DNA of 64,000 nucleotides from an uncultured Verrucomicrobiae bacterium (lineage in GTDB: Bacteria > Verrucomicrobiota > Verrucomicrobiia > Chthoniobacterales > Chthoniobacteraceae), in contig CAWCSW010000020.1 in the NCBI GenBank assembly GCA_963798345.1, positions 8,855-72,854 on the forward strand, written 5' to 3'. Both the position numbers and the translations under genes were made by a program. Positions within the stretch are counted from its first letter, which is position 1; each line of letters starts with the position of its first letter. Of this stretch, positions 5 through 18,868 are shown piece by piece. Below the pieces are notes generated by a model. It was given only the letters and a program-made list of their open reading frames with translations, did no database searches and was not told where the DNA came from.

Positions 5-1306
5 TTGTTCGAGTTTGAACACCGGGTGCGGCATCGCGATGGGACGTGGCGTTTGTGTTCCATCCGGGCGGTTCCTTTGCTGGATGCAGCGGGCGAGGTC
101 CGGGAGTGGGTGGGAGTCCATACCGACATCACGGAACGGAAACGGGCGGAGGCGAACTTGCTGGAGGCCAAGCAAGCCGCAGACATGGCCAACCAAAGCA
201 AAGATCGCTTCCTCGCCGTCCTGAGCCACGAACTGCGCACGCCGCTCACGCCCGTGCTCATGGCCATCGGTGCACTGGAACACGATCCCGAGCTTTCGGC
301 CGAAGTGCGCGAAGACCTGGCAATGATGAAGCGCAACATCGAACTGGAGACGAAACTCATCGACGACCTCCTCGACCTCAGCCGCATCACCAGCGGCAAA
401 CTGCCGCTGCACATCGAACCGCTCGATCTGAATGAGGTCGTGCGCCACGTTTGCGGCATCTGCCACCCGCCGCTGCGCGAGCGATCGATTCATTTGGAAA
501 TGATGCTCGACGACGTGACCGGGTTCGTGGCTGCCGACCGTGCGCGGCTCCAGCAGGTGCTCTGGAATATCCTCAAAAACGCGATCAAGTTTACGCCGGG
601 GAAAGGCACCATCCGCGTGACCACGAAGCGCCTCGACGGCGATCGGTGGGAAGTTCGCATCCAGGATAATGGTATCGGCATTCCGGCCGAGGTGCTGCCG
701 CGTATTTTCAATGCCTTCGAGCAGGGCGACGCGAGTGTCACGCGGCAATTCGGTGGACTGGGTCTCGGGCTGGCGATCTCCAAGGCGGTCGTGGACCTGC
801 ATCAAGGATCCATTCTCGCGGAGAGTGCCGGGCCGGGCCAGGGCGCGACCTTTGTGATCGAGCTGCCTGGCGCGGCACCCGCCCCCGCGGCCGATTCCGC
901 CGGGATTGCGCCCGCCGGGGTAGGCAAGGCCCGCCGGCTCCGCCAGCTCCGCGTGCTCCTCGTCGAGGACCACGCCGACACGTCACGCACGCTCGTCCGG
1001 CTGTTACGCCGCCAGGGGTTCGTGGTGGTCAGCGCCGCGGATGTCGCCAGCGCGACCGCGCGGGCGGAGACGGAGGCGTTCGATGTGCTGGTCAGCGATC
1101 TCGGGCTACCGGACGGCAACGGCGACGAAGTGATCCGCCGGGTACGCGCCAGTCAGATCGTGCCGGGGATCGCGATGAGCGGTTACGGCATGGAAGAGGA
1201 CGTGCGCCGCTCCCGCGAGGCCGGTTTCACCGAGCACTTGGTGAAGCCGATCGACGTGTCGCAACTCGTCGCTGCGATCAGACGCGTAACAAATGATCGG
1301 GATTGA
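5..1306 (+). CDS. Hybrid sensor histidine kinase (HisKA-HATPase-REC); 5' end outside window
   Basis: H-box ANQSKDRFLAVLSHELRTPLTPVLM; HATPase N/G boxes (QQVLWNILKNAIKFT, GGLGLGLAISKAVVDLHQGS); C-terminal receiver (LLVEDHADT...DLGLPDGNG...KP). Paralogous to the kinases at 3638 and 5665. Confidence 0.85.
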   Translation: MFEFEHRVRHRDGTWRLCSIRAVPLLDAAGEVREWVGVHTDITERKRAEANLLEAKQAADMANQSKDRFLAVLSHELRTPLTPVLMAIGALEHDPELSAEVREDLAMMKRNIELETKLIDDLLDLSRITSGKLPLHIEPLDLNEVVRHVCGICHPPLRERSIHLEMMLDDVTGFVAADRARLQQVLWNILKNAIKFTPGKGTIRVTTKRLDGDRWEVRIQDNGIGIPAEVLPRIFNAFEQGDASVTRQFGGLGLGLAISKAVVDLHQGSILAESAGPGQGATFVIELPGAAPAPAADSAGIAPAGVGKARRLRQLRVLLVEDHADTSRTLVRLLRRQGFVVVSAADVASATARAETEAFDVLVSDLGLPDGNGDEVIRRVRASQIVPGIAMSGYGMEEDVRRSREAGFTEHLVKPIDVSQLVAAIRRVTNDRD

Positions 1307-1463
1307 GCTCTTTCACGCCCGAAGTTCACCGGCCTTCCGATCGTTCAGCCATCCCCCTCCGCCTCGCAGCGCCACCCCCTTCCCCCACCCCCCAGTAAAC
1401 CTGCGCGTCACGAGCCTCGCCGATGCGATCCGATGAATCGGCCATAAGGACGAAAGCCCCGTC

Positions 1464-1847
1464 ATGCCTGCCTTCGTCGAGGCAATGAAGGCCAAGCCCG
1501 CGACGGTACTACCGCGGGGTGACGATTGGCTCTATGAATTGAAGTTCGATGGCTACCGTTTCCTCGGCGGAAAAGCCGGCGTGGAGGTTCGCATGTGGTC
1601 GCACTCCGAGAAGGACATCACCTCACGTTTCGCGACGGTCGCCAAGGCCCATTCCGCCTTGGTGGACCGCGAACTCGTCGTCGCTGACGAACTAGGCCGA
1701 CCGTCGTTTAACCCATTCAGCATGCGGACGAGTCCACGGATTACTGCGCGTTCCGCTTCGATCTGCTGGAACTCGATGCATGCGACCTGCGACGCGAACA
1801 GCTGGAGGAACGCCGCGCGATGCCCGGCCGATGGTCGGACACATAAT
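1464..1847 (+). pseudogene. ATP-dependent DNA ligase (LigD-type ligase domain) N-terminal remnant, frameshifted and truncated
   Basis: Ligase motif I KFDGYR (LYELKFDGYRFLGG). The reading frame breaks near 1730. The homologous text FRFDLLELDACDLRREQLEERRAMPG continues in another frame to a stop at 1845-1847. Only about 125 of the roughly 300 aa of the domain are present. Confidence 0.55.
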
Positions 1848-2139
1848 GGAGATCCTCTTCTTTTGTGACCACGACCGCCGAAGCTGAAAGAGATTTCATA
1901 AAACGAAAACTCCCCCGCGAGATTTGTGGGTACGGTGCTGGAACAAAAGGCTCATCGAACCGAGTTCGCGCCCCACGGATTGGCTGGTCGCGCGAATTTC
2001 TCACCCCCCATTCATTTCGGAAAAGCGAACTCACGGTGATGCGCTCACGCACCGACTTTGCTGCGATGGGAAAGTTAAAGGCGCAAGTAGGCGTGGCCTG
2101 TAGAGGGCTCCGTTCCAGCGCGCCGCATCCGGCCATCTT

Positions 2140-3657
2140 ATGACTTCTAATTTAGCAACCGAGGCGCTCGCTCCGAAATGTCTCACCGGTATTGAGGGGC
2201 TCGACCGCGTCCTTCTGGGCGGGCTCCCGCGCAACCGCTTCTATCTCGTGCAGGGCGATCCCGGCGTCGGTAAAACGACTCTCGGGCTACAATTCCTCTT
2301 GGAGGGAGTGAAGTCCGGCGAGAAGGGTCTCTACATTACGCTTTCCGAAACGCGGGAAGAATTGTTGGGAGTCGCGCACTCCCACGACTGGTCACTCGAC
2401 GCCCTGGCCATTTTTGAGTTGTCGGCCATTGAGGAAACGCTGTCCACCGATTCGCAAAACACGCTCTTCCATCCCTCGGAGGTTGAGTTGAATCACATCA
2501 CGAAGATTCTCCGCGATAAGGTAAGCGAAGTGCAGCCGGCGCGCATAGTGTTCGACTCGCTTTCCGAGCTGCGGCTGCTCGCGCAGAATCCATTGCGGTA
2601 TCGACGGCAGTTGCTTTCGCTCAAGCAGTTCTTCGTCGGGCGCAACTGCACGGTCCTGGTCATGGACGACCGGACCAGCGAAGCCTCCGACCGGGAGGTA
2701 CAGAGCATCGCGCATGGGGTTTTGAATCTGGCGCGGATGGCTCCCGAATACGGCGCGGAACGCCGCCGACTTTCGGTGGTCAAAGTGCGCGGCGAGGCAT
2801 TCCGCGGCGGTTTTCACGACTACATTATTACCAAAGGTGGTCTGGTCGTTTTCCCGCGTCTGATCGCCTCCGAGCATCGCCGCACCTTTCCGGCACAAGC
2901 AATCTCCAGTGACATCAAGCAACTGGATGCCCTGCTGCTCGGCGGTTTGGATCGGGGCACCAGTACGCTCTTTTCCGGTCCTCCGGGAACCGGGAAATCG
3001 ACGCTGGGAGCCAAGTTCGCGGCGGCGGCCGCGGGCCGTGGTGAAGCCGTTGCCGCCTATACTTTCGACGAGAAAATCGAGACCTACATCCAGCGTGGGG
3101 ATGCGCTCGGCATGGAGTTGAGCAAGCACATCGCGAGCGGCAAGCTGGAGGCGACGCAAATCAATCCCGCGGAACTCTCGCCAGGCGAATTTGCGCATCG
3201 CATCCGCCGCGCCGTGGAAGACCGGGACGTCCGGTTGGTCGTGATCGACAGCTTGAACGGCTACCTCAATGCGATGCCCGAGGAGCGTTTCCTCACCATC
3301 CAGATGCATGAGTTGCTCAGCTATCTGGCGCAACAGGGCGTCGTGACGATTCTCATTCTCGCGCAGCACGGACTGGTCGGGTCGATGCAGTCGCCCGTCG
3401 ATGTCACCTATCTCGCGGATACCGTGCTGATTCTCCGCTATTTCGAGGTCGAGGGCGCGGTGAAGCAGGCCGTTTCGGTAATCAAGAAGCGCAGCGGCGG
3501 CCACGAGCGAACGATTCGGGAATTCAAGATTCAATCCGACGGCGTCCACGTTGGAGAGCCGCTCCGCGAGTTCCATGGCGTGCTCACGGGAGTGCCGACT
3601 TTTCAAGGATCGGCCGAGGCAATTATGAAAGGAAAAGGTGGCAACGGACATTCGTGA
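2140..3657 (+). CDS. kaiC: KaiC-family circadian-clock-like ATPase (two RecA-like P-loop domains)
   Basis: Domain I GIEGLDRVLLGGLPRNRFYLVQGDPGVGKTTLGLQFL. Domain II ISSDIKQLDALLLGGLDRGTSTLFSGPPGTGKSTLGAKFA. KaiC-like C-terminal stretch DTVLILRYFEVEGAVKQAVSVIKKRSGGHERTIREFKI. The stop overlaps the start of the downstream kinase by 20 nt. Confidence 0.8.
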   Translation: MTSNLATEALAPKCLTGIEGLDRVLLGGLPRNRFYLVQGDPGVGKTTLGLQFLLEGVKSGEKGLYITLSETREELLGVAHSHDWSLDALAIFELSAIEETLSTDSQNTLFHPSEVELNHITKILRDKVSEVQPARIVFDSLSELRLLAQNPLRYRRQLLSLKQFFVGRNCTVLVMDDRTSEASDREVQSIAHGVLNLARMAPEYGAERRRLSVVKVRGEAFRGGFHDYIITKGGLVVFPRLIASEHRRTFPAQAISSDIKQLDALLLGGLDRGTSTLFSGPPGTGKSTLGAKFAAAAAGRGEAVAAYTFDEKIETYIQRGDALGMELSKHIASGKLEATQINPAELSPGEFAHRIRRAVEDRDVRLVVIDSLNGYLNAMPEERFLTIQMHELLSYLAQQGVVTILILAQHGLVGSMQSPVDVTYLADTVLILRYFEVEGAVKQAVSVIKKRSGGHERTIREFKIQSDGVHVGEPLREFHGVLTGVPTFQGSAEAIMKGKGGNGHS

Positions 3658-5293
3658 GTCGGGAGACGAGAGCGTCCTCGTCCTGGCACCACTCGGTCGC
3701 GACGCTGAACTTGCGTCCGCCGCTTTGGCCGCGACCGGATTTCAATGCGTGATCTGCGGCGACCTGCAGGAAGTCATGGAAAAGCTCTCCACCCCGCGCG
3801 GCGCGGTGCTGCTCGCCGAGGAGGCGATCACACCCGCCGGACTGGCGCAATTAGCCGCTCTCCTCGGTGCTCAGCCCGCGTGGTCGGACTTGCCCATTAT
3901 CCTTCTCACGAGCAGCGGCAATGTGGCCGAAGCTAATTCCGCTGCGGTGGCACACTTCGGGCAGGACATTAATGTTACGCTGCTGGAGAGACCGCTCCGT
4001 GTCATCACCCTCTGCAGCACGGCGCGCGTGGCGCTGCGCGCCCGGCGTCGCCAATACGAAGTGCGCGCCCTCCTTCGGCAGCGCGAAGAAGTTCTGGCCA
4101 GCGAGCGCGCAGCGAGGTCTGACGCCGAACGCGCGGGCCGGATGAAGGATGAATTTTTGGCCACGCTCAGCCACGAACTGCGGACGCCACTCAATGCCAT
4201 CGTTGGCTGGTGTGCGCTGCTACAGGGCGGCCCGACGGATGATGACGAATTGGCGCAAGGCTTGGAAACGATCGAGCGGAACGCACGGGCGCAGACGCGG
4301 ATCATCGAAGACTTGCTCGATATGAGCCGGATTATTTCCGGGAAAATCCGGCTGGACGTCCGGCCATGCGATCTCGGGGAAATTGTCCAAGCGGCGGTGG
4401 ACACCGTGCGCCCGGCAGCGGAAGCCAAGAGCATCACGTTGCGCGCTGTTCTTGATTCCGAAATCGGCCCGCTATTGGGCGATCCCAATCGACTTCAGCA
4501 GGTCTTTTGGAACCTGCTGACCAATGCCATTAAATTCACGCCCAAAGGCGGCTCGGTGAAGGTCACCCTTCAGCGCGTCCACTCCCAAGCGGAGATCAGC
4601 ATCGCCGATACGGGTCATGGGATTCAGGCCGAATTCTTGCCGTTCGTCTTCGATCGCTTTCGCCAGGCGGATTCTTCCTCGACCCGGCATCATCGCGGAC
4701 TCGGTCTGGGCTTGGCCATTGTCAAGCAATTGGTGGAACTCCACGGAGGAAGTGTGGCGGCTCGGAGCCCAGGGCTCGGGCGGGGCGCGACGTTCATGGT
4801 GGCGCTGCCGGTCTCAGCGTTGCTTGCAAATCCTGACTCCGGCACTTCGGCGCCGACCCATGAGGCAGAATTGGCAGTCTCCTCGGATTGGAAAGCAGAG
4901 GTGCGGCTCAACGACGTGAAAGTGGTCGTCGTGGACGACGAAGTGGACGCCCGCGATGTCGTGCGACGCCTCCTCGAAGGCTGCGAAGCGGACGTGCGGG
5001 TCGCGGGTTCCGCGGCGGAGGCGCTCGGACTTATTCGAGCGCACCGGCCAGACGTGCTGGTCAGCGACATCGGCATGCCGGGCGAAGACGGCTACGCGCT
5101 GATTCGCCTCCTGCGCGCGTTGCCGCCGGACGAAGGCGGCTCTACCCCCGCTATCGCGCTTACGGCATACGCGCGCGTGGAGGACCGCGTACAGGCGCTG
5201 CGTGGGGGCTTTCAAATGCACGCCGTCAAACCCGTCGAGCCAGCCGAATTGGTGGCCATGGTGGCGAGCCTCGCGCGTTCGGCTACCGCCTGA
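3638..5293 (+). CDS. Hybrid histidine kinase with N-terminal pseudo-receiver domain (PsR-HisKA-HATPase-REC)
   Basis: N-terminal roughly 130 aa has receiver-like beta/alpha periodicity (VLVLAPLG..., AVLLAEE, PIILLTSSG) but the phospho-acceptor Asp position reads AEE. Then RMKDEFLATLSHELRTPLNAI, an HATPase domain (GLGLGLAIVKQLVELHGGS), and a true C-terminal REC (VVVVDDEVDARD...VSDIGMPGEDG...KP). Probably translationally coupled to kaiC. Confidence 0.85.
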   Translation: MATDIRESGDESVLVLAPLGRDAELASAALAATGFQCVICGDLQEVMEKLSTPRGAVLLAEEAITPAGLAQLAALLGAQPAWSDLPIILLTSSGNVAEANSAAVAHFGQDINVTLLERPLRVITLCSTARVALRARRRQYEVRALLRQREEVLASERAARSDAERAGRMKDEFLATLSHELRTPLNAIVGWCALLQGGPTDDDELAQGLETIERNARAQTRIIEDLLDMSRIISGKIRLDVRPCDLGEIVQAAVDTVRPAAEAKSITLRAVLDSEIGPLLGDPNRLQQVFWNLLTNAIKFTPKGGSVKVTLQRVHSQAEISIADTGHGIQAEFLPFVFDRFRQADSSSTRHHRGLGLGLAIVKQLVELHGGSVAARSPGLGRGATFMVALPVSALLANPDSGTSAPTHEAELAVSSDWKAEVRLNDVKVVVVDDEVDARDVVRRLLEGCEADVRVAGSAAEALGLIRAHRPDVLVSDIGMPGEDGYALIRLLRALPPDEGGSTPAIALTAYARVEDRVQALRGGFQMHAVKPVEPAELVAMVASLARSATA

Positions 5294-5664
5294 ACAACAA
5301 AATCGGACATCCGTTTCAACCCAGCACAGCAATCTTTCATCGCACCCCGAGTCTCCGATGACCACCACACAACTCGAATTCCCAGTCACGACGACATCGC
5401 AGCTATGGCCCGGAATCTTTGGGAAGAAGAGGGAAGGCTCAAACGCAAGGCTGAGGAGCATTGGCGGCTCGCCGATTCGCCAAGCTCAGCAGCTCGGTGA
5501 GCAGACGAAGTCCCAAGGCGCCGGCGTCGTTTGGAATTGAGATTGGCTGCCGCGTGCTGGGCGGTGGGTGAATGCGGGGTTGGAGAAAGTGATTGCGCCG
5601 CGAAATGCGGCGTTGTGGCATCCCGCGCGGCATTTAGTCTGCGACCGAAATTTCCACGCCGCCC

Positions 5665-8253
5665 TTGACTCTCTCGCTCCTCAATGTCGATCCGCAGCAT
5701 CTTCGCGAGTTTTTTGCCTACGTGGCGGCCGCGCGAAAATGGGCGCTCGTTGATCCCGAGTTGGCGTCGGAGCCGGACATTCGGTGTCTCCTTGCCGCCT
5801 TCCCGCAGTCCTCAGGAGAGGTCTTGGGAGAGCAGGAAGCTCGGAAGCGAGCAGGAGAGGCACTGCGTCAAAGCGAGGCCATGGCGAAGGCGTGCGCCGA
5901 GGAGTTGACCAAGGCCCTGGACGCGCTGGACGAAAGTGAGAAAAAGCTGCGCTGGGCGACGGAAGCGACGGAAGCGGCGGAACTGGCGATCTGGTCGTGG
6001 GACGTCGCCCAGGACTCCGTCATTTGGGAGAATGACCGACCCTACGAATTCTTTGGCATAGACCGCGCTCAGGGACCGGTGAATGCGGCGCGCTTCGTGG
6101 CTGAATTCCTCCACCGCGAGGACGCGCCGGGATTTGAGTCTGCCGCAGCCAATGCGCTGCGCACAGGGGAGCGATTCTTTTTCCTCGGGCGTTTCTACCG
6201 CAAAAGCGGGGAACTGCGCTGGATCGAATTCACCGGACATCCCACGCCCGGTGTGGGCGGAAAATTCATACACATGTTCGGCACCGCGGCCGACGTGACG
6301 GCGCGCCAGTCGCAGCAGCTTGCTGTGGAAGAAAGCGAGGCGCGCCTCCGCCGGGTGTTCGAGTCGAATGTTGTGGGCATGATCAAGTGGAATCTGGACC
6401 GCAGCCTGATCCTCGACGCCAACGAAGAGTTTCTCCGCATGACCGGCTACACGCGCGAAGACGTGGCCGAGGGTCGCTTGAATTTCCGCGCCCTGACCCC
6501 ACCCGAGTGGACGCCACTGAACGAGGACGGCATCCGTCGCATCCGTGAGCAGGGTTTCGCCGCGCCTTACGAGAAGGAATACTTTCGCAAAGACGGGTCG
6601 CGCGTTCCCGTGATCATCGCCGGCACGCGGTTTGACGACGCCCCGTCGGAAGGGATGTCTTTCTTGATCGACATCACCGAACGCAAGCGCGCGGAGGCGG
6701 CGATGCGCCAGAACGCGGCCCTATTTTCCACCCTCATCGAGCAGGCGCCCGTGGGGGTGTATGTGGTGGATGCGCAGTTCCGCCTGCAACAGGTGAACAC
6801 CGTAGCATTGCCCGCTTTCCGGAGCGTCCGTCCGCTGCTCGGGCGCGATTTTGGCGAAGTCATGGACATTCTGTGGGGGCCGGAGGTCGGGGGAGAATTG
6901 GCGGCCGTTTTTCGGCACACGCTGGAGACTGGAGAGCGTTACATTTCCCCGCCATTTTCCGAACAGCGCCAGGATCTCGGCGAGGAGCATGCCTACGAGT
7001 GGGAAACGCAGCGCGTCACTCTGCCCGACGGTCAGCACGGAGTGGTCTGCTATTTTTCCGACGTGACCGAAAGGCACCGGGCCGCCGCCGCCTTGCAGGA
7101 AGCCAAGGACGCCGCGGAAGCGGCCAACCGCAGCAAGGATCGTTTCCTTGCCGTGCTTAGCCACGAGCTGCGCACGCCGCTCACGCCTGTGCTGATGACC
7201 GCGGCGGCGCATCGGATGGACGAAGATCTTCCGCGGGAAATCCGCGACGAATTCGGAATGATCGAGCGCAACATCGCCCTGGAAGCGCGGCTGATTGAAG
7301 ACTTGCTCGATCTCACCCGCATCGTGAATGGCAAGCTCACCGTCCGCGCCGAGCCGTGCGATGCCCACTCCCTGCTCGGCCTCGTGGTGGAGATGGTCCG
7401 CAGCGACGCGCTGGAAAAGCAGATCACCATCCAGCTCGAACTCGCCGCGCAACGCCGTCACCTCACCGGCGATCCGGCGCGCTTGCAGCAGGTGCTTTGG
7501 AATCTGCTGCGCAACGCGGTCAAGTTCACACCCGCCGGTGGGCGCGTCTGCGTGCGGTCGTTCGATAGCGCCGACGCCACCGGATTGGAGAATCAATCGC
7601 GCCTCTGTATTGAGGTGATCGACAACGGGATCGGCTTCGAGCCGGCGGCGGCGGCGCGCATTTTCGAGCCCTTCGAGCAGAGCGGAGCGGGGCAAAGCTT
7701 CGGTGGCCTTGGCCTCGGCCTTGCCATCGCCCGCGCCGTTGTCGAATTGCACCGGGGAGCGATTCATGCCGAGAGTCCCGGTCCCGGCCAGGGCGCCACC
7801 TTCACCGTGGAATTGCCCGGCGAGATCAACTCCCGCGTCGGCGCGGCCACGCGCGGGCACGACTCGGACGACGCGCCCGAGCGCGACACACCGTTCCGGC
7901 TCCTTCTCGTGGAGGATCACGAGCCGACGCTCCAGGTGCTCACGCGGCTGCTCGTGCGGGCCGGACATCAAGTCCTCACGGCGCGAAGCCTCGCCGAGGC
8001 GCACGCGACCGCAGCGAAAGAGACCGTCAATCTCGTGATCTCCGACCTCGGCCTCCCCGACGGCACCGGGATCGAACTCATGCACCACCTCCGCGCGACT
8101 TACGGTCTCCGCGGCATCGCGCTGACTGGCTACGGCGCGTCCGACGATCTGCGTCGCTCGGAGGACGCGGGTTTCGTCGCGCATTTGGTGAAGCCGGTGA
8201 ATATCCACGAGCTTCGGCGAGTGTTGCGAAGTCTCTCAGCGACAAATTCCTGA
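5665..8253 (+). CDS. PAS-domain hybrid histidine kinase (PAS x2-3, HisKA, HATPase, REC)
   Basis: PAS-like segments (WSWDVAQDSVIWEND..., MIKWNLDRSLILDANEEFLRMTGYTREDV...). H-box ANRSKDRFLAVLSHELRTPLTPVLM. HATPase (QQVLWNLLRNAVKFT, GGLGLGLAIARAVVELHRGA). C-terminal REC (LLLVEDHEPT...SDLGLPDGTG...KP). Confidence 0.85.
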   Translation: MTLSLLNVDPQHLREFFAYVAAARKWALVDPELASEPDIRCLLAAFPQSSGEVLGEQEARKRAGEALRQSEAMAKACAEELTKALDALDESEKKLRWATEATEAAELAIWSWDVAQDSVIWENDRPYEFFGIDRAQGPVNAARFVAEFLHREDAPGFESAAANALRTGERFFFLGRFYRKSGELRWIEFTGHPTPGVGGKFIHMFGTAADVTARQSQQLAVEESEARLRRVFESNVVGMIKWNLDRSLILDANEEFLRMTGYTREDVAEGRLNFRALTPPEWTPLNEDGIRRIREQGFAAPYEKEYFRKDGSRVPVIIAGTRFDDAPSEGMSFLIDITERKRAEAAMRQNAALFSTLIEQAPVGVYVVDAQFRLQQVNTVALPAFRSVRPLLGRDFGEVMDILWGPEVGGELAAVFRHTLETGERYISPPFSEQRQDLGEEHAYEWETQRVTLPDGQHGVVCYFSDVTERHRAAAALQEAKDAAEAANRSKDRFLAVLSHELRTPLTPVLMTAAAHRMDEDLPREIRDEFGMIERNIALEARLIEDLLDLTRIVNGKLTVRAEPCDAHSLLGLVVEMVRSDALEKQITIQLELAAQRRHLTGDPARLQQVLWNLLRNAVKFTPAGGRVCVRSFDSADATGLENQSRLCIEVIDNGIGFEPAAAARIFEPFEQSGAGQSFGGLGLGLAIARAVVELHRGAIHAESPGPGQGATFTVELPGEINSRVGAATRGHDSDDAPERDTPFRLLLVEDHEPTLQVLTRLLVRAGHQVLTARSLAEAHATAAKETVNLVISDLGLPDGTGIELMHHLRATYGLRGIALTGYGASDDLRRSEDAGFVAHLVKPVNIHELRRVLRSLSATNS

Positions 8254-10855: not shown

Positions 10856-11500
10856 ATGTCTAACTCCCCGCTCTCTGAAAACCGAACGCGCATCTTGATC
10901 GCCGAAGATCACGCCAAAACGCGCGAGGCCCTGCGCTCCTTGCTGGAGATTAAAGCTTTTGACGTAACCTCCGTCGCCACCGGCAATGAAGCGCGCGAAG
11001 TTCTCACATCGTTCGACACACCCTGCATTGCTCTTGTCGATTGGGAAATGCCGGGTGCTTCCGGCTTGGATGTCTGCCGGGCCGTCCGTGCTCATAAGTC
11101 CGATCGCTACGTTTACCTTATCGTCATCACGGCACGTGATGGCGAAGAAAGCATTAACCAGGCAATGGCCGCTGGTGCCGACGATTTCATTCCGAAGCCA
11201 TGCGGAGTGTCCGAGCTTCTCGCCCGGGTACGGAACGGCGAGCGGACCGTCGCCTTGCAACGCAATCTCGCGATTCGCATTGCTGAATTGGAGGAAAGCG
11301 CTGAGCGCATGCGTCAACTGAAGCGTCTCCTGCCAATCTGCATGTATTGCAAAAAAATCCGCGATGACTTGGACTACTGGGAGGAGATTGAGGTCTATAT
11401 CCGGGAACACACAGGAACGAATTTTTCCCACGGAATCTGCCCGAGTTGCATGGCGAACGAGATTGGCGAACTGAGCGCTAAGAGGTTACCGGGCACTTAG
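10856..11500 (+). CDS. Response regulator: REC domain plus C-terminal Cys/His-rich (zinc-ribbon-like) domain
   Basis: REC motifs RILIAEDHAK...ALVDWEMPGASGLD...KP. C-terminal LPICMYCKKIRDDLDYWEEIEVYIREHTGTNFSHGICPSCMANE, a four-Cys motif. Start chosen at the internal ATG at 10856. The 3' end overlaps the convergent kinase gene by 15 nt. Confidence 0.75.
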   Translation: MSNSPLSENRTRILIAEDHAKTREALRSLLEIKAFDVTSVATGNEAREVLTSFDTPCIALVDWEMPGASGLDVCRAVRAHKSDRYVYLIVITARDGEESINQAMAAGADDFIPKPCGVSELLARVRNGERTVALQRNLAIRIAELEESAERMRQLKRLLPICMYCKKIRDDLDYWEEIEVYIREHTGTNFSHGICPSCMANEIGELSAKRLPGT

Positions 11501-13267
11501 CCGGTCGATCGTCTCCTTTAGTCGATCAGCGGCGACTGGCTTGACGATATGAGCGTTGAATCCGGCGTCCTTTGTTTGTTCCAAGTCGGACTCCATGCCG
11601 TAACCGGACATGGCAATCGCGGGGATATCGCGGTCCCGCCGGAGCTTGCCCAGCAAGTCCATCCCCGTGCCATCAGGCAGGCCCACATCGCTGAGCAACA
11701 GTTCCGGGTCGAAAGCCGGTGCATACTCGATCGCCTGGGTCATCGTTGCGGCATGCTTCACGACATGGCCCCAGCGGCTGAGTAAACGTTCGAGCGCGTT
11801 GCGGGTATCTTCATGGTCTTCGACGAGGAGGATACGGAGCGTGCGCACCGTGGGCGTGACGGGCAGTGACATGCCCGAAACCTTCGGCGCCGCCGGCGGT
11901 ATAATCGTCGCCAGTTCGATGGTGAATGTCGCCCCGTGATCCTTGCCGGCGCTGAACGCCGTGATGCGGCCGCTGTGCGCTTCGACCAGCCCTTTCGCAA
12001 TGCTCAGGCCCAGACCAACACCACCGAAGCGTCGCATTGTGGAATCTTCGCCCTGCTGAAACGGCTCGAAGATACGGGAGAGCATCTCGGGGTCAATGCC
12101 GATACCGGTGTCCGTGACGTCGATGCGCACCGTTTCCGGCGTGGGATTCACGGTGCGAACGGTGATGCTTCGTTCATTCGGAGTGAATTTCACGGCGTTA
12201 AGGATGAGGTTCCAAAAAATTTGTGCGAGCCGCGCACCATCGCCCTTCACATGACGCTCGGTCGCATCAAGGTGTAAGGCGATTTCCGAGCGCTTCTGAT
12301 TCGCCGCGGAACGGCACATATCTGCGGCGTGCCGAATTGTTTCATGAAGGTCGATGGTGGAAAGATGCACCTCCAGCTTGCCTTTGCTGATTCTGGTGAT
12401 GTCGAGCAGATCATCGACGAGCCGCGCTTCGAGTTCAATGTTTCGGCGAATCAGCGAAAGCGACTCGCGTAGCTCTTGGGGATCGATCTCTGTCGCGTTT
12501 TCCAGATTGCTGGCGGCTGCTAAAGCGGGCGTGAGGGGCGTGCGCAGTTCATGACTGAGCACGGCGAGAAACTGATCCTTTGCGCGATTGGCGGCCTCCG
12601 CGGCCTGCTTCGCGCGCTCCAGCTCACGGGCGTGGACGGTGACTTCCTTGGCCATGTGCGCGAGGTCGTGAGTCCTCTCACCATTGGCAGCTGTGTGGGC
12701 GCCGAGGGCCGCGGCTGTGAAATACGCTGAGGGAGCAGCGTCCGTCGCCTTTTTATAGAGTTCCGCCAGTACAGCGTAGGCTTTCTCCAGTTCGGACTTC
12801 CGTTCCGCGGCAAGGCGTGCCGACTGCAACACCGAGCGGATTTTCGGCACCAGCGGGGGGAGCAAAAGCGCGGTAACCAGCGAGGCCGTTGCCGTAAGCA
12901 ATTTCACCCAGCCGGAGAGCCAGTAGCGAGGATGCGGCGACTGCAGCGTCCAGACTTCCATGAAGTGCGTGGCCCCGCAGGCCACAATGAAGAGCGCGAA
13001 AGCCAGCATCATCCAATGGAACGGCAGCTCCTGCCGCGCTCGGAAGACGAGATAGATCAGCGTCGTCGAGATTGCGACGTAGGAGAATCCGATGACGAGA
13101 TCCGACCAACCATGCAGCCTCATCAGGTCGCGGTTGAACAGGTAGCAATGCGCGTGCGGCATGAACATGTCCGTCCCGGAATCATGAAAGGCGGCCGCAA
13201 CGATGGCCCCTAACGCGAGGGCCACGGCGACCAGGGCTATGACAGACCGAACGCGCGCTTGGTTCAT
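11486..13267 (-). CDS. Hybrid histidine kinase with N-terminal ethylene-binding-domain (ETR1-like) membrane sensor
   Basis: N-terminal TM region TLIYLVFRARQELPFHWMMLAFALFIVACGATHFMEVWTL aligns with Arabidopsis ETR1 [39 protein letters not shown]. That includes the Cu(I)-ligating Cys65/His69 motif (CGATH) and the upstream D and Y positions (WSDLVIGFSYVAIS vs ISDFFIAIAYFSIP). Followed by HisKA (AKDQFLAVLSHELRTPLTPAL), HATPase and a C-terminal REC. Confidence 0.85.
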   Translation of the reverse strand: MNQARVRSVIALVAVALALGAIVAAAFHDSGTDMFMPHAHCYLFNRDLMRLHGWSDLVIGFSYVAISTTLIYLVFRARQELPFHWMMLAFALFIVACGATHFMEVWTLQSPHPRYWLSGWVKLLTATASLVTALLLPPLVPKIRSVLQSARLAAERKSELEKAYAVLAELYKKATDAAPSAYFTAAALGAHTAANGERTHDLAHMAKEVTVHARELERAKQAAEAANRAKDQFLAVLSHELRTPLTPALAAASNLENATEIDPQELRESLSLIRRNIELEARLVDDLLDITRISKGKLEVHLSTIDLHETIRHAADMCRSAANQKRSEIALHLDATERHVKGDGARLAQIFWNLILNAVKFTPNERSITVRTVNPTPETVRIDVTDTGIGIDPEMLSRIFEPFQQGEDSTMRRFGGVGLGLSIAKGLVEAHSGRITAFSAGKDHGATFTIELATIIPPAAPKVSGMSLPVTPTVRTLRILLVEDHEDTRNALERLLSRWGHVVKHAATMTQAIEYAPAFDPELLLSDVGLPDGTGMDLLGKLRRDRDIPAIAMSGYGMESDLEQTKDAGFNAHIVKPVAADRLKETIDRLSAR

Positions 13268-13288: not shown

Positions 13289-13975
13289 CTAGGTCATCCG
13301 GCGAGGCACAACCGCAGAAAAGTCGCCAAAGGGCAGCGATTCGTCCTGGTAGAGGTTGCTCGAGCCAGTCAAACGTCCCACGAGGTCGGCGGTCTGCGAA
13401 TCGTCCCCTTTCCAGTAAGTGTCGCGCAAATTCTCCGGCAGTTCCCTCCACAGCTTCGAGGACCCTTTCACTTGAGCTTCGTCGGTTATGGTTTCCGCCA
13501 TCGGTCGCCTCAAGCCCTTGTCCCTCCCCCAGTCGAATGGGTCATCCACGACCACAGATTTCCGCCTGAGGTGAGCATTGCCGCGATCGGCTGCCTGGTT
13601 GTCTTCATCGCCGGCGATTACGTTGGCGAACATTTCCTCGCCTTATTGAAAGCCGCCGTTGATCGCCTTCGCATACTGGTCAAGCAGGAGCTTCTTCGCG
13701 CTGAAGCGATGGCCATTCTCGGGCTCATACGGCCCATGAACCTGAAATCCGTAGCGGGTGCCAGGATTCGCGTTGGGAAGATACCCATGCTAAATTGCAT
13801 CGGTCTTCTCAGGAAGCGGGATCTGAGCGGTTTCGCGCGCCGGATCGTTCGGATCGAAGAGGCAACGCTCCACCTTGCTCGCTTGCGCGCCGACGATGGC
13901 GAAGTTCGTGCCGTCGCCGTCGAAGGTGGCCCCGAGAGGATGTGAGATACCCTGGTAGATGCGGAGTTTGTCCAT
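13289..13975 (-). pseudogene. glgX: Glycogen debranching enzyme GlgX/TreX (isoamylase-type) N-terminal remnant, frameshifted and 3'-truncated
   Basis: N-terminal MDKLRIYQGISHPLGATFDGDGTNFAIVGAQASKVERCLFDPNDP matches the GlgX N-terminus. Homology continues in two other frames ([22 protein letters not shown]; ETITDEAQVKGSSKLWRELPENLRDTYWKG). It stops about 230 aa in, directly abutting the kinase start at 13267. Confidence 0.6.
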
Positions 13976-14481: not shown

Positions 14482-15123
14482 ATGCTTTACGAATTTGATG
14501 ATCAATCGAACCCTGCCCCCTCCACGGCAACGACCGTCGATCGTTCCGACGAAGAGCTGATGCAGCGCATTCAAAATCACGACGAAACGGCTCTGGCCAC
14601 GCTCTATCGCCGCCACACTCCGCTCTTGCGGACGATCGCCGCCCGCATCGTCAACAACAATGCTGACGTGGATGACCTGATTCAGGAGATCTTCGTTGAA
14701 ATCTGGAACCGTGCGGGGAGTTACGAAGAGGCCAAGGGCAAGGCGATCGGCTGGATTGTGACGCTGGCCCGCCGCCGCGGGATCGACCGCATGCGCCGGA
14801 ATCAAGCCTACTCGCGAGCCGGGGAACGCCTGCGCGAAAGCGCTGCGGGCGATGCTGAAGCGATGCATCCCGCGACCGATGCGGAGGCGATGAACGGGGA
14901 CACCGCGGAAATCTTCCGACGGATTCTCGATAGCCTCCCCGCCGCCCAACGCGAGGCCATCCATCTCGCCTATTACGCCGGCCTCAGCCAGCGTGACATC
15001 GCCCGCCTCACTGGCATTCCCCTCGGCACCATTAAAACTCGTCTAGAACTTGCCGTGTGCAAAATCCGCGCCGGCATCCTCGCACTTGGCGGCGAGGCGG
15101 AGTGGCGCATTGCGCACGCCTAA
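14482..15123 (+). CDS. ECF-family RNA polymerase sigma factor (sigma-70 regions 2 and 4)
   Basis: Region 2 DLIQEIFVEIWNRAGSYEEAKGKAIGWIVTLARRRGIDRMRR. Region 4 LPAAQREAIHLAYYAGLSQRDIARLTGIPLGTIKTRL. No anti-sigma gene is visible next to it. Confidence 0.8.
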   Translation: MLYEFDDQSNPAPSTATTVDRSDEELMQRIQNHDETALATLYRRHTPLLRTIAARIVNNNADVDDLIQEIFVEIWNRAGSYEEAKGKAIGWIVTLARRRGIDRMRRNQAYSRAGERLRESAAGDAEAMHPATDAEAMNGDTAEIFRRILDSLPAAQREAIHLAYYAGLSQRDIARLTGIPLGTIKTRLELAVCKIRAGILALGGEAEWRIAHA

Positions 15124-15185: not shown

Positions 15186-16688
15186 TTACTGCCCGATCCC
15201 AAACCGCCGCATCTTCGCGTAAAGCGTCGGGCGGTGAATTCCCAAGATTGCCGCGGCTTGCTTTTTGTTGCCCTGCGTCTTGCGCAACGCCGCCAGCACA
15301 GCCTCTTTTTCCACTTCCTCCAAGCTCCCGGTCGGTAGCGGCGGTACTCCCGTGAGCATTGGGGCAGCCAGTTCGGGCATGCGGATTTCTCGGGGCAGGC
15401 ATTTGGCCCCGAGCAGTGGCCCCTCGCACAAGACCAGCGCGTGCTCGATCGCATTTTGCAGTTCCCGGACATTTCCCGGCCAGCCATACACTCGGAGCAT
15501 CTCCAGCGCTTCGGGGTCCAACTGTGGAAGATGCTTGCGGAGCTGGTTGGCAAAGCGGTGGAGGAAAGTATCGACGAGTTTGGGAATGTCTTCGCGACGC
15601 TCCCGCAGCGGTGGTATTTCGATCTCGAACGTTTTCAATCGATAGTAGAGATCCTCCCGCAGCCGACCTTCCCTGACCGCCAGCCCGATCGGACGATTGC
15701 AGGCCGCGATCAGTCGAAAGTCGGCGCGGATATTCTTGGTCGTGCCCAAGGGCCGGAACTCGCGCTCTTGCAGCACGCGCAGAAAACGCGTCTGCAGCTC
15801 CAACGGCATCTCGGTGATCTCGTCCAGAAATAGCGTGCCGCCTCGCGCCTCGGCGAGCATCCCCGGAAAGGCGACGACCGCTCCCGTGAACGCACCCCTG
15901 GCGTAGCCGAAGAGTTCCGCCTCGATCATGTTCGCGGGGAACGCCCCGCAATTCAGTTTGATCATCGGTCCGTCGCCACGCTCGCTATGTCGATGCACCT
16001 CGCCGGCATACACCTCCTTCCCCACGCCGCTTTCGCCGGTCAGCAAAATGTTCGCCTCGCTCGGGGCGATCCGCGCGATGAGTTGCTCGACCTCCCTCAT
16101 CCGCCGACTGATCGCCACCGGGGCGAGTTTTTCCTCAGCCGCGCGCAGCCGCTTCTCCAGCGATTCGTTCGCTGCGGTGAGCGTCTCCGTTTGCCGCACG
16201 AGATCACGTTGCTCCAGTGCCCGCGCGCACAAACTCAGCAATTCCTCAGCCGCATACGGCTTGGATAGAAAATGGAACGCCCCGAGTTTGATCGCCTCGA
16301 TGGCATTTGCGAGCGTGTCGTTGGCCGTCAGAATCATCACCGGCAATGCCGGGGTGTCCGCCTTCAGCCGTCGTAAAACGTCGAGGCCCTCCGCATCGGG
16401 CAGTCCGAGATCGAGCAGTACCAGATCCGGTTTGACCTCCTCGACCTTCTTCCTCCCCAAGGAGGCCGTCGGCCCCACGTGAACCTGATAGCCGTGCCGC
16501 TCCAGAATCGAGGAGAGCGTCGCCTGAATCGTGCGCTCGTCATCGATGACGACGATCTTTTTGCCCGACTCCGTCACTAACGCGGCAGAATCGGTTCCCG
16601 TCGAAGCGTAGTTTCCGTCGGCGGCAGGAAGGGCAATTCTTTCATGTGTGATCTGAGCTTTCATTTTCTCCAGCTCGTACTTCGGCAC
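15186..16688 (-). CDS. Sigma-54-dependent transcriptional activator, NtrC family (REC - AAA+ - HTH)
   Basis: REC (VVIDDERTIQ...LLDLGLPDAEGLD). AAA+ sigma54-interaction domain (ILLTGESGVGKEVYAGEVH, GAFTGA, ELFGY). C-terminal Fis-type HTH (GNKKQAAAILGIHRPTLYAKMRRFGI). Confidence 0.85.
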   Translation of the reverse strand: MPKYELEKMKAQITHERIALPAADGNYASTGTDSAALVTESGKKIVVIDDERTIQATLSSILERHGYQVHVGPTASLGRKKVEEVKPDLVLLDLGLPDAEGLDVLRRLKADTPALPVMILTANDTLANAIEAIKLGAFHFLSKPYAAEELLSLCARALEQRDLVRQTETLTAANESLEKRLRAAEEKLAPVAISRRMREVEQLIARIAPSEANILLTGESGVGKEVYAGEVHRHSERGDGPMIKLNCGAFPANMIEAELFGYARGAFTGAVVAFPGMLAEARGGTLFLDEITEMPLELQTRFLRVLQEREFRPLGTTKNIRADFRLIAACNRPIGLAVREGRLREDLYYRLKTFEIEIPPLRERREDIPKLVDTFLHRFANQLRKHLPQLDPEALEMLRVYGWPGNVRELQNAIEHALVLCEGPLLGAKCLPREIRMPELAAPMLTGVPPLPTGSLEEVEKEAVLAALRKTQGNKKQAAAILGIHRPTLYAKMRRFGIGQ

Positions 16689-16998: not shown

Positions 16999-17906
16999 AT
17001 GCTCAACGAACTCTGGTATCGAAATTCCATCATTTACAGCCTTGATGTCGAAACCTTCATGGATGCCAATCACGATGGGATCGGCGACTTCGAAGGCCTG
17101 AGCCTCTCGCCCAGGCTCTCAAGGCAACACGTGAGGTGCCGCCAGGTGCGCAATGGTGCCACTTTCTCCGTAACCACGATGAGCTCGATCTCGGACGTCT
17201 GACCGAGAAACAGCGGGAGAAGGTCTTTGCGCGCTTCGGCCCGGAGAAGGATATGCAGCTTTACGATCGCGGCATTCGCCGCCGCCTCGCACCGATGCTG
17301 GGCAATCGCCCCCAGCTGGAACTCGCGAACAGCCTCGCCCTTTCGCTACCGGGCACGCCGGTGCTGCGCTACGGCGATGAGATTGGCATGGGCGATGATC
17401 TTGACCTCTCGGAGCGCAATTCCGTCCGCACGCCTATGCAGTGGAGCAACGAAATTAACGGCGGTTTTTCCACCGCGAAGAAAACGGTTCGCCCGGTGAT
17501 CGAGAAGGGCAGCTATGGATTTTCACGGGTGAACGTGGAAGCGCAGCGGCGGGAGCCGGATTCGTTCCTGACCTGGACGGCGGCGATGATCCGCCTGCGC
17601 AAGGAATGTCCCGAGATCGGAATGGGCGCCTGGAAAATGGTGGAGACGAAGTCGAAGTCGATCCTCGCTTTGCAATACGAGTGGAGGGGCAGTTCCGTGG
17701 TGATCATGCACAATTTCGCTTCGTCTCCGCAAACGGTCCACATCCGGCCGGAAGGAGGTCGCGAGCACGGCCTCGTGGATCTGATTGAGCGCCAGGAGAG
17801 CGCGGCTGACGGCAGGGGCGAACACGAAGTTGCGCTCGACGCGCCCGGCTACCGCTGGTTCCGCGTCGGGCCGCTAACGCAAAAGCTCGGCCGCAAGCGG
17901 GCGTGA
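16999..17906 (+). pseudogene. treS: Trehalose synthase / GH13 alpha-amylase-family gene remnant with a roughly 300-codon internal deletion
   Basis: N-terminal 35 aa MLNELWYRNSIIYSLDVETFMDANHDGIGDFEGL (GH13/TreS N-terminus) join, in a different frame, to a TreS-like C-terminal half (WCHFLRNHDELDLG...LSLPGTPVLRYGDEIGMGDDLDLSERNSVRTPMQWS...). The catalytic core is missing. The junction lies at a 6-bp inverted repeat at 17100..17118. Confidence 0.65.
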
Positions 17907-18170: not shown

Positions 18171-18404
18171 ATGCCAAAGTGCGAAGTTTGTGGAAACGAA
18201 TACGACAAAGCCTTCGAGGTCATCCTCGCGGGAAAGAGCCACATCTTCGACAGCTTTGAATGCGCGATCCACGCGCTTGCGCCGAAGTGCCCGTCTTGCG
18301 GCTGCCGCATCATCGGCCACGGCGTCGAGGAGGCTGGGGAAATCTTCTGCTGCGTCCACTGCGCACGCTCCGATGGGCGCACGAAATTGAAGGATCGCGC
18401 ATGA
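18171..18404 (+). CDS. Small Cys-rich putative metal-binding protein (two CxxCG motifs)
   Basis: MPKCEVCGNEYDKAFEV...FECAIHALAPKCPSCGCRIIGHGVEEAGEIFCCVHCA, with 10 Cys in 77 aa. Start taken at the internal ATG at 18171. The stop (TGA 18402-18404) overlaps the ATG of the next gene (ATGA). Confidence 0.5.
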   Translation: MPKCEVCGNEYDKAFEVILAGKSHIFDSFECAIHALAPKCPSCGCRIIGHGVEEAGEIFCCVHCARSDGRTKLKDRA

Positions 18405-18868
18405 CCCCCGCGCTGGTGCTCATCGCGCTGCTCACCGGGCGCGCGGTGAAGGTGCCAAGCATGGCGGGCGAACTCGTCTCCGGCGTGCTGGAAGAAAGCG
18501 CTATCGCGCTCGGGCTCTCCACGTTTTTCCTCGGCGTAATCGTCCTCGCCGTGGTCGGTAACGCTGCAGAGTATGTGGCCGCGGTATATTTCGCGCGGAA
18601 AAACCAGATGGGCCTCGTGATGAGCATCACTGTCGGCTCCACCATCCAGGTTGCGCTGCTACTGGCGCCGCTCCTCGTCATCGTCTCGCACTTTTTGGGA
18701 AAGCCGATGAATCTCGTCTTTGAAAACCCGCTGGAACTCGTCGCCATCGCCGGCGTCACCTTCGCCGTGAATGCCATCGCCGAGGACGGCGAGACGACGT
18801 GGTTTGAAGGGGTGCTGCTGCTCGCCGTCTATGTCGTTCTCGGCATGGCGTTTCTTTTGGTGAAATAG
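18401..18868 (+). CDS. Half-size Ca2+/cation antiporter (CaCA family, single alpha-repeat), possibly truncated
   Basis: 155 aa with about 5 TM segments and one CaCA alpha-repeat signature (GNAAEYVAAV). Full CaCA/ChaA proteins carry two such halves. No N-terminal half is present in any frame upstream. Confidence 0.6.
   Translation: MTPALVLIALLTGRAVKVPSMAGELVSGVLEESAIALGLSTFFLGVIVLAVVGNAAEYVAAVYFARKNQMGLVMSITVGSTIQVALLLAPLLVIVSHFLGKPMNLVFENPLELVAIAGVTFAVNAIAEDGETTWFEGVLLLAVYVVLGMAFLLVK

Follow-up and report, generated by a model that had tools for sequence, protein, structure and literature searches.

Ethylene sensing beyond plants has been directly shown in few bacteria, i.e., in Synechocystis, in cells of Geitlerinema and in Azospirillum, and the bacterial receptors SynEtr1 (PMC6682694) and AzoEtr1 (PMC11819568) bind ethylene. 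Surveys have in addition reported kinases with an ethylene-binding domain (EBD) from several bacterial phyla (PMC6682694, PMC11819568). In the plant receptor ETR1, C65 and H69 coordinate a Cu(I) cofactor with the assistance of D25, which bridges to K91 (PMC10266040); mutations of Y32, F61, I62, C65 and H69 lower or abolish binding (PMC8879215), I35, P36 and I62 are among the residues essential for ethylene binding (PMC6586836), and the tomato Never-ripe allele, a Pro36Leu exchange in the EBD, leads to ethylene insensitivity (PMC6727826). The list of essential residues used here was assembled from these four papers, which cite the original mutagenesis. The present analysis concerns a window of 64,000 nucleotides, the whole stretch of DNA analysed, from contig CAWCSW010000020.1 of an uncultured Verrucomicrobiae bacterium, and window positions are used as coordinates throughout. 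On its minus strand, an open reading frame with an ATG start (11486..13267) codes for a hybrid sensor histidine kinase of 593 amino acids (aa). By its profile match the sensor of this kinase is essentially certain to belong to the ETR1_N family, and we consider it rather probable that the gene product is a functional hybrid kinase anchored in the membrane, with a true ETR1-type sensor which would respond to a small ligand held by Cu(I), most likely ethylene.

The three-helix transmembrane domain at aa 48-145 (12833..13126, minus strand) matches the Pfam family PF25487 (ETR1_N), labelled 'Ethylene receptor 1-like, N-terminal domain', with 108 bits as compared to a curated cut-off of 27 bits (E 3e-31), and the match spans positions 2-96 of the 97 positions of the profile. 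It is followed on the same strand by a HisKA domain (aa 229-295, 12383..12583) with the phospho-accepting H239 (12551-12553) in an SHELRTPL motif, by a HATPase_c domain (aa 342-452, 11912..12244) in which the N, G1 and G2 boxes are present (NLILNAVKF, DTGIGI and GGVGLGLSI), and by a Response_reg receiver (REC) domain (aa 479-587, 11507..11833) with E483/D484, D527 (11687-11689), S554 and K576. The phospho-histidine, the nucleotide-binding boxes and the phospho-aspartate that define a hybrid histidine kinase are therefore all intact. The original prediction, made from the DNA letters, had read the gene as a hybrid histidine kinase with an ETR1-type EBD and had proposed a profile search of its N-terminal region; this search returns the family far above the cut-off, and the domain order is as predicted. 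NCBIfam recognises the generic kinase core alone and holds no model for the sensor domain. Between sensor and kinase no GAF or PAS domain was found with Pfam, and aa 150-228 comprise a helix and a variable linker only, so that the plant-type layout of EBD, GAF and histidine kinase (HK) is not present. The kinase is a further member of the already described bacterial EBD kinases and no new kind of system, because bacterial relatives are known, the curated Pfam family covers it strongly, and surveys have found such kinases in several phyla.

For the comparison with ETR1, the sequence of the Arabidopsis protein was used, and its numbering agrees with eleven residues numbered in the literature. 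BLASTP aligns 122 aa of the N-terminal region with it at 33% identity (E 8e-17), and the identity of the sensor domains is 33-36%. ETR1 D25 corresponds to D56 in helix 1 (13100..13102), C65 and H69 to C97 and H101 in helix 2 as the predicted Cu(I) ligands (12965..12979; codons checked), and K91 to K122 in helix 3 (12902-12904), the partner of D56, all on the minus strand. Y32, I35, F58, F61, I62, T68 and S98 are matched by Y63, I66, F90, F93, I94, T100 and S129, respectively. Each of the residues named so far is invariant in all of the 80 best related EBD loci from GTDB species genomes (80/80). In addition, T94 is matched by T125, and P110 by P141, the latter assigned by the same offset of +31. 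The Cys and His ligands and the counterparts of D25, Y32 and I62 that had been recognised in the sequence are thus confirmed, and the string FIVACGATHF quoted for them comprises aa 93-102. The residues required for binding include Tyr32, Ile35, Phe61 and Ile62 (PMC8879215, PMC6586836), and their equivalents are present. In a check of all seven essential residues, suggested together with the prediction, the other checked positions agree, while P36 is replaced by S67 (13067..13069, minus strand), the sole mismatch among the essential residues and a clade-wide trait.

The N-terminus had been described as a region of three transmembrane segments. This has to be revised, as there are four hydrophobic segments, the first of which (aa 8-27, 13187..13246, minus strand; VIALVAVALALGAIVAAAFH, following two Arg) would be a signal peptide or an additional transmembrane helix ahead of the three-helix domain. 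The relatives likewise have a hydrophobic N-terminal stretch, which is poorly conserved (16-44% identity), and an extra hydrophobic segment at this place is shared with the plant subfamily 2 receptors. An AlphaFold model of aa 33-150, computed with 14 aligned relatives, reached a predicted local distance difference test (pLDDT) score of 84 and a predicted template modelling (pTM) score of 0.73, and contains helices at aa 46-77, 83-109 and 115-149, so that according to the model three transmembrane helices make up the sensor. Just ahead of helix 1 lies the Met/His/Cys motif DMFMPHAHCYL (aa 33-43, 13139..13171, minus strand), which is predicted to be periplasmic and in which, across the aligned relatives, the Pro and His are near-invariant and the Cys is invariant; its counterpart in AzoEtr1 is LPHGVCLFW, which gives PHxxC as the reduced form. 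By analogy with C4 and C6 of ETR1, the motif might serve in disulfide-linked dimerisation, or else in the capture of Cu(I). Two Arg are located at the extreme N-terminus, and the loop joining helix 1 to helix 2 contains R76 and R78. Judged by this charge distribution alone, the topology is likely to be that of ETR1, with a periplasmic motif and a cytoplasmic kinase.

Compared with the plant ETR1-type receptors, the kinase therefore shares the three-helix Cu(I)-type sensor with equivalents of D25, Y32, I35, I62, C65, H69, K91, S98 and P110, and with ETR1 also the histidine kinase core followed by a receiver. It differs from ETR1 by the lack of the GAF domain, by the Ser at the position of Pro36, and by a single periplasmic Cys within PHxHC in place of the C4/C6 pair. 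Plant receptors signal via CTR1 and EIN2, whereas the kinase encoded in the window would make use of a bacterial phosphorelay. Among bacterial receptors, AzoEtr1 of Azospirillum brasilense, whose sequence was recovered from the plasmid record of strain Sp7 and has 525 aa as published (PMC11819568), is likewise a kinase with an N-terminal EBD, and it has in common with the kinase the PHxxC motif ahead of helix 1 and every metal and pocket residue save that at position 36. However, AzoEtr1 is built as EBD-PAS-HK with Pro36 and is co-transcribed with a single-domain regulator (PMC11819568), whereas the present kinase is built as EBD-linker-HK-REC, has Ser36, and lacks an adjacent partner.

The domain is widespread: of 1.84 billion cluster representatives, 8,929 match the EBD profile at E<=1e-3, and 6,654 still do so at E<=1e-10. 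The view that such domains are scattered among bacteria outside the cyanobacteria does not hold, given that the matching representatives come from many phyla and that AzoEtr1 is a proven non-cyanobacterial binder (PMC11819568). The nearest relatives in species genomes belong to the Verrucomicrobiota (Chthoniobacteraceae, Prosthecobacter, and Chthoniobacter flavus Ellin428), with 70-81% identity in the domain, followed by Cyanobacteria, many Acidobacteriota, Methylomirabilota, Chloroflexota, Ignavibacteriales and some Proteobacteria. The domain is combined in these relatives with PAS-HK-REC, HisKA_3 kinases, PAS alone or double kinases, and this assortment of output fusions is consistent with a modular sensor.

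Two orthologues, L001 from a member of the Chthoniobacteraceae and L005 from a member of the Verrucomicrobiae, both from metagenome-assembled genomes, share 70% identity over their full length and the same four domains. Most other verrucomicrobial relatives are considerably longer (approximately 990 aa) and are organised as EBD-HK1-REC1-HK2-REC2. Such long-form double kinases were found in the cultured C. flavus Ellin428 (L013, 5839-8817 of that locus), in Prosthecobacter (L003, 5857-8823 of that locus) and at nine other verrucomicrobial loci. Their sensor domain is 70-76% identical to that of the window kinase, and their second kinase-receiver pair is 50-64% identical to its single pair, but the window kinase and its two orthologues have no HK1-REC1. 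By alignment, the window kinase corresponds to the long form minus this first pair: the sensor and the helix following it extend to about aa 172 ('ELYKKA'), after which a linker of about 30 aa leads to the helix that enters what is the second kinase of the long forms. This poorly conserved linker, rich in Ala, Pro and Gly (aa 173-203, 12659..12751, minus strand), is located where the relatives of about 990 aa have their first kinase-receiver pair. Identity to the two orthologues is 77-79% in the sensor domain, 85-88% in HisKA, 68-69% in the catalytic domain and 70-72% in REC, and drops to 35-39% in the linker. Therefore, the domains are under selection, each of them showing purifying conservation, and their connection looks like a flexible tether with no continuous signalling helix. 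An AlphaFold model of the full-length kinase from its single sequence had a mean pLDDT of 42 and is uninformative on the linker.

The following scenario, in which we infer copper binding, the identity of the ligand, the topology, the direction in which the kinase is regulated and its downstream partner, might account for these features. The N-terminal hydrophobic segment would insert the kinase into the membrane with the short Met/His/Cys stretch towards the periplasm, and the three transmembrane helices would make up the sensor, in which one Cu(I) per monomer would be held by C97 and H101 of helix 2 with the help of D56 of helix 1. The copper would be the docking site of a small pi-bonding ligand, in all likelihood ethylene, and the resulting change would be relayed by the D56-K122 bridge to helix 3 and on to the next helix. 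Autophosphorylation of H239 would thereby be altered, and the phosphate would then pass to D527 of the kinase's own receiver and from there onward to an Hpt protein and a response regulator encoded elsewhere. Binding of Cu(I) is proposed because the triad of Cys, His and Asp is invariant, and ethylene is the most economical ligand, since the pocket is otherwise unaltered and binding of ethylene is known for two bacterial members of the family. Binding of ethylene by this sensor is thus plausible, and it is held with moderate confidence because of the change from Pro36 to Ser across the clade.

Several observations weigh against this scenario. First, P36, which is essential in ETR1 (PMC6586836), is Ser67 in the kinase, and a Glu three residues past the His ligand is near-invariant in its clade (150 of the 165 top library relatives with a complete domain, taken from two library searches) but mixed in the relatives of AzoEtr1. 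Second, no report of ethylene binding was found for any member of the clade with Ser36. Third, with a linker that is so variable between orthologues, a classical rigid helical coupling of sensor and kinase is doubtful. Finally, neither an Hpt nor a co-directional regulator was found nearby among the open reading frames scanned.

Of the 80 loci, 76 have Ser at position 36, three have Ala, one has Thr and none has Pro; Pro36 is also absent from all 165 library relatives, in contrast to AzoEtr1 and all of its relatives (39/39), which have it. Ser67 is accordingly a property of the whole clade and no private mutation. As regards proven binders, this comparison covers ETR1 and AzoEtr1, both of which have Pro36; SynEtr1, GeiEtr1 and GeiEtr2 are reported to retain 'all seven' required residues (PMC6682694, PMC11819568). 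The kinase has a mean identity of 44% to the AzoEtr1-type relatives and of 62% to its own clade. In a neighbour-joining tree the sequences with Pro, which are ETR1, AzoEtr1 and the relatives of the latter, and those without it split 42 to 0, although the two samples that went into this tree were obtained with two different query seeds and the clean split is therefore partly due to construction. The number of Ser-type members cannot be read from profile scores, because Pro-type sequences reach up to 156 bits on the same profile.

It is thus possible, if less than likely, that the same fold and copper site serve another signal, such as another alkene or alkyne, CO, NO or O2, or copper or redox status itself, or that ethylene is bound only weakly. 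The loss of the essential Pro36 in favour of Ser, Ala or Thr across the clade would be in line with this, as would the additional conserved Glu close to the His ligand, the conserved periplasmic Met/His/Cys motif and the split of the tree, with the reservation just made. Three loci moreover carry naturally the Ala that, in the alanine scan of ETR1, is reported to abolish binding (PMC6586836), and natural D25N variants show that affinity is tuned within the family (PMC10266040). However, all remaining pocket and metal residues are invariant, which argues for the same chemistry, and nothing positive was found for any alternative ligand. As a more far-reaching version, which we put forward tentatively and regard as rather unlikely, the Ser36/Glu72 clade, which is spread over Verrucomicrobiota, Acidobacteriota, Cyanobacteria and other phyla, might make up a class of its own in function among copper-dependent gas sensors of the membrane, with a ligand or affinity unlike that of the plant, Synechocystis and Azospirillum receptors.

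An ethylene-responsive kinase with partners encoded elsewhere is not what had been assumed for the output. According to the original prediction, the kinase might signal to the response regulator encoded next to it and control nearby stress or carbohydrate genes. This neighbour (10856..11500, plus strand, with 10856 as the probable start), which is treated here as an adjoining gene and not as a demonstrated part of the system, is an open reading frame coding for a REC domain, a coiled coil and a C-terminal module with four Cys (Cys4). It is indeed convergent with the kinase gene, the two abutting with an overlap of 15 bp at their 3' ends, its receiver is intact, and glycogen and trehalose genes are found at a distance of 7-11 kb. 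Nevertheless, such an output appears improbable. The Cys4 gene occurs in none of the 80 related EBD loci, and, conversely, the EBD motif occurs in none of 80 metagenomic Cys4 loci, so that of the proposed convergent pairing the physical arrangement is borne out and the functional one is not. In 27 of the 80 Cys4 loci there is a same-strand kinase H-box within about 1-2.4 kb, i.e., the usual operon layout. A hybrid kinase also normally requires an Hpt, which was missing among the open reading frames scanned. Control of local genes finds no support in the orthologues with 70% identity, whose neighbours are unrelated (TetR/AcrB genes for one, and genes for GT2, YkuD and an FGE-sulfatase for the other), nor in the state of the adjoining carbohydrate gene, which is a pseudogene remnant. 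This glgX/isoamylase remnant (13289-13975, minus strand) lies 22 bp upstream of the kinase start, retains the N-terminal part of about 230 aa in one frame with a match to CBM_48 (E 3e-4), and has suffered an internal deletion, a 3' truncation and two in-frame stops, a TAA at 13643-13645 and a TAG at 13790-13792, the latter at a site where E. coli GlgX has a Trp. The kinase is therefore best described as an orphan, and its gene offers no clue to the genes that its signal controls.

Even less credible is a decaying or uncoupled remnant, in which the deletion of the first kinase-receiver pair from an ancestor of about 990 aa would have left the sensor unable to control the kinase. The gap of about 400 aa relative to the long forms, with a variable linker in its place, could be understood in this way, and gene fragments are found nearby, i.e., besides glgX with its two in-frame stops a C-terminal part of an alpha-amylase-family gene (17136-17906, plus strand; profile positions 318-442 of 446) and a piece of an ATP-dependent DNA ligase of 134 aa (1464-1868, plus strand). 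However, the short form exists in three lineages at about 70% identity, its domains and catalytic residues are conserved, and there are no frameshifts or stops. A chance resemblance to ETR1, with a fortuitous CGATH match, is ruled out by the 108-bit profile score.

The Cys4 module of the neighbouring regulator (CxxC-x27-CxxC; 11339-11449, plus strand; 'CMYCKKIRDD..YW...E.YI..HT...FSHGICP.C') belongs to no Pfam or NCBIfam family, REC being the only part of the protein recognised, and literature searches with strings of the motif gave no match. At least 225 relatives of the module are found in metagenomes. It is placed 7-34 residues from the C-terminus in all 81 matches from the 80 metagenomic loci kept, and among 47 scanned proteins 38 have REC ahead of it, while it is also found after PAS, HAMP, MASE3, dCache or 4HB_MCP. 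Going by sequence, this placement is the pattern of a putative signal-output domain that is as yet undescribed.

The window from 5 to 8253 contains a dense run of signalling genes on the plus strand. They comprise a PAS-HK-REC gene truncated at the edge of the window (5-1306), a gene for a KaiC-like double ATPase (2140-3657) whose end overlaps with the beginning of an HK-REC gene (3638-5293), and a triple-PAS HK-REC gene (5665-8253). The last of these shares its strand with the REC/Cys4 gene and represents a more conventional candidate for the kinase of that regulator. On the other side of the kinase gene, a gene for an extracytoplasmic function (ECF) sigma factor (14482-15123, plus strand) adjoins one for a sigma-54-dependent response regulator (15186-16688, minus strand). 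Relatives of the ECF sigma factor are also found near some of the long-form EBD kinases (L007, L008 and L010), at varying distance and in varying orientation. A partial Na/Ca exchanger gene is present at 18260-18868 (plus strand), and together with the fragments described above it suggests that several genes of the region have decayed. A scan for promoters and terminators found sites no more numerous than in shuffled sequence, and scans of the 64-kb window revealed neither tRNA genes nor any Rfam family at the gathering threshold.

The kinase gene is a probable verrucomicrobial addition to the few bacterial cases in which ethylene sensing is directly shown, and its relatives are very common among soil phyla. 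For specialists, the main point is the subclade that retains all copper and pocket residues but lacks Pro36; together with the short-form layout, it represents a modest but testable novelty. If the Ser36 clade indeed formed a separate class, the conserved MxMPHxHC motif may be the route by which it takes up copper from the periplasm, and surveys that demand all seven residues would overlook much of the bacterial sensing that makes use of the ETR1_N fold.

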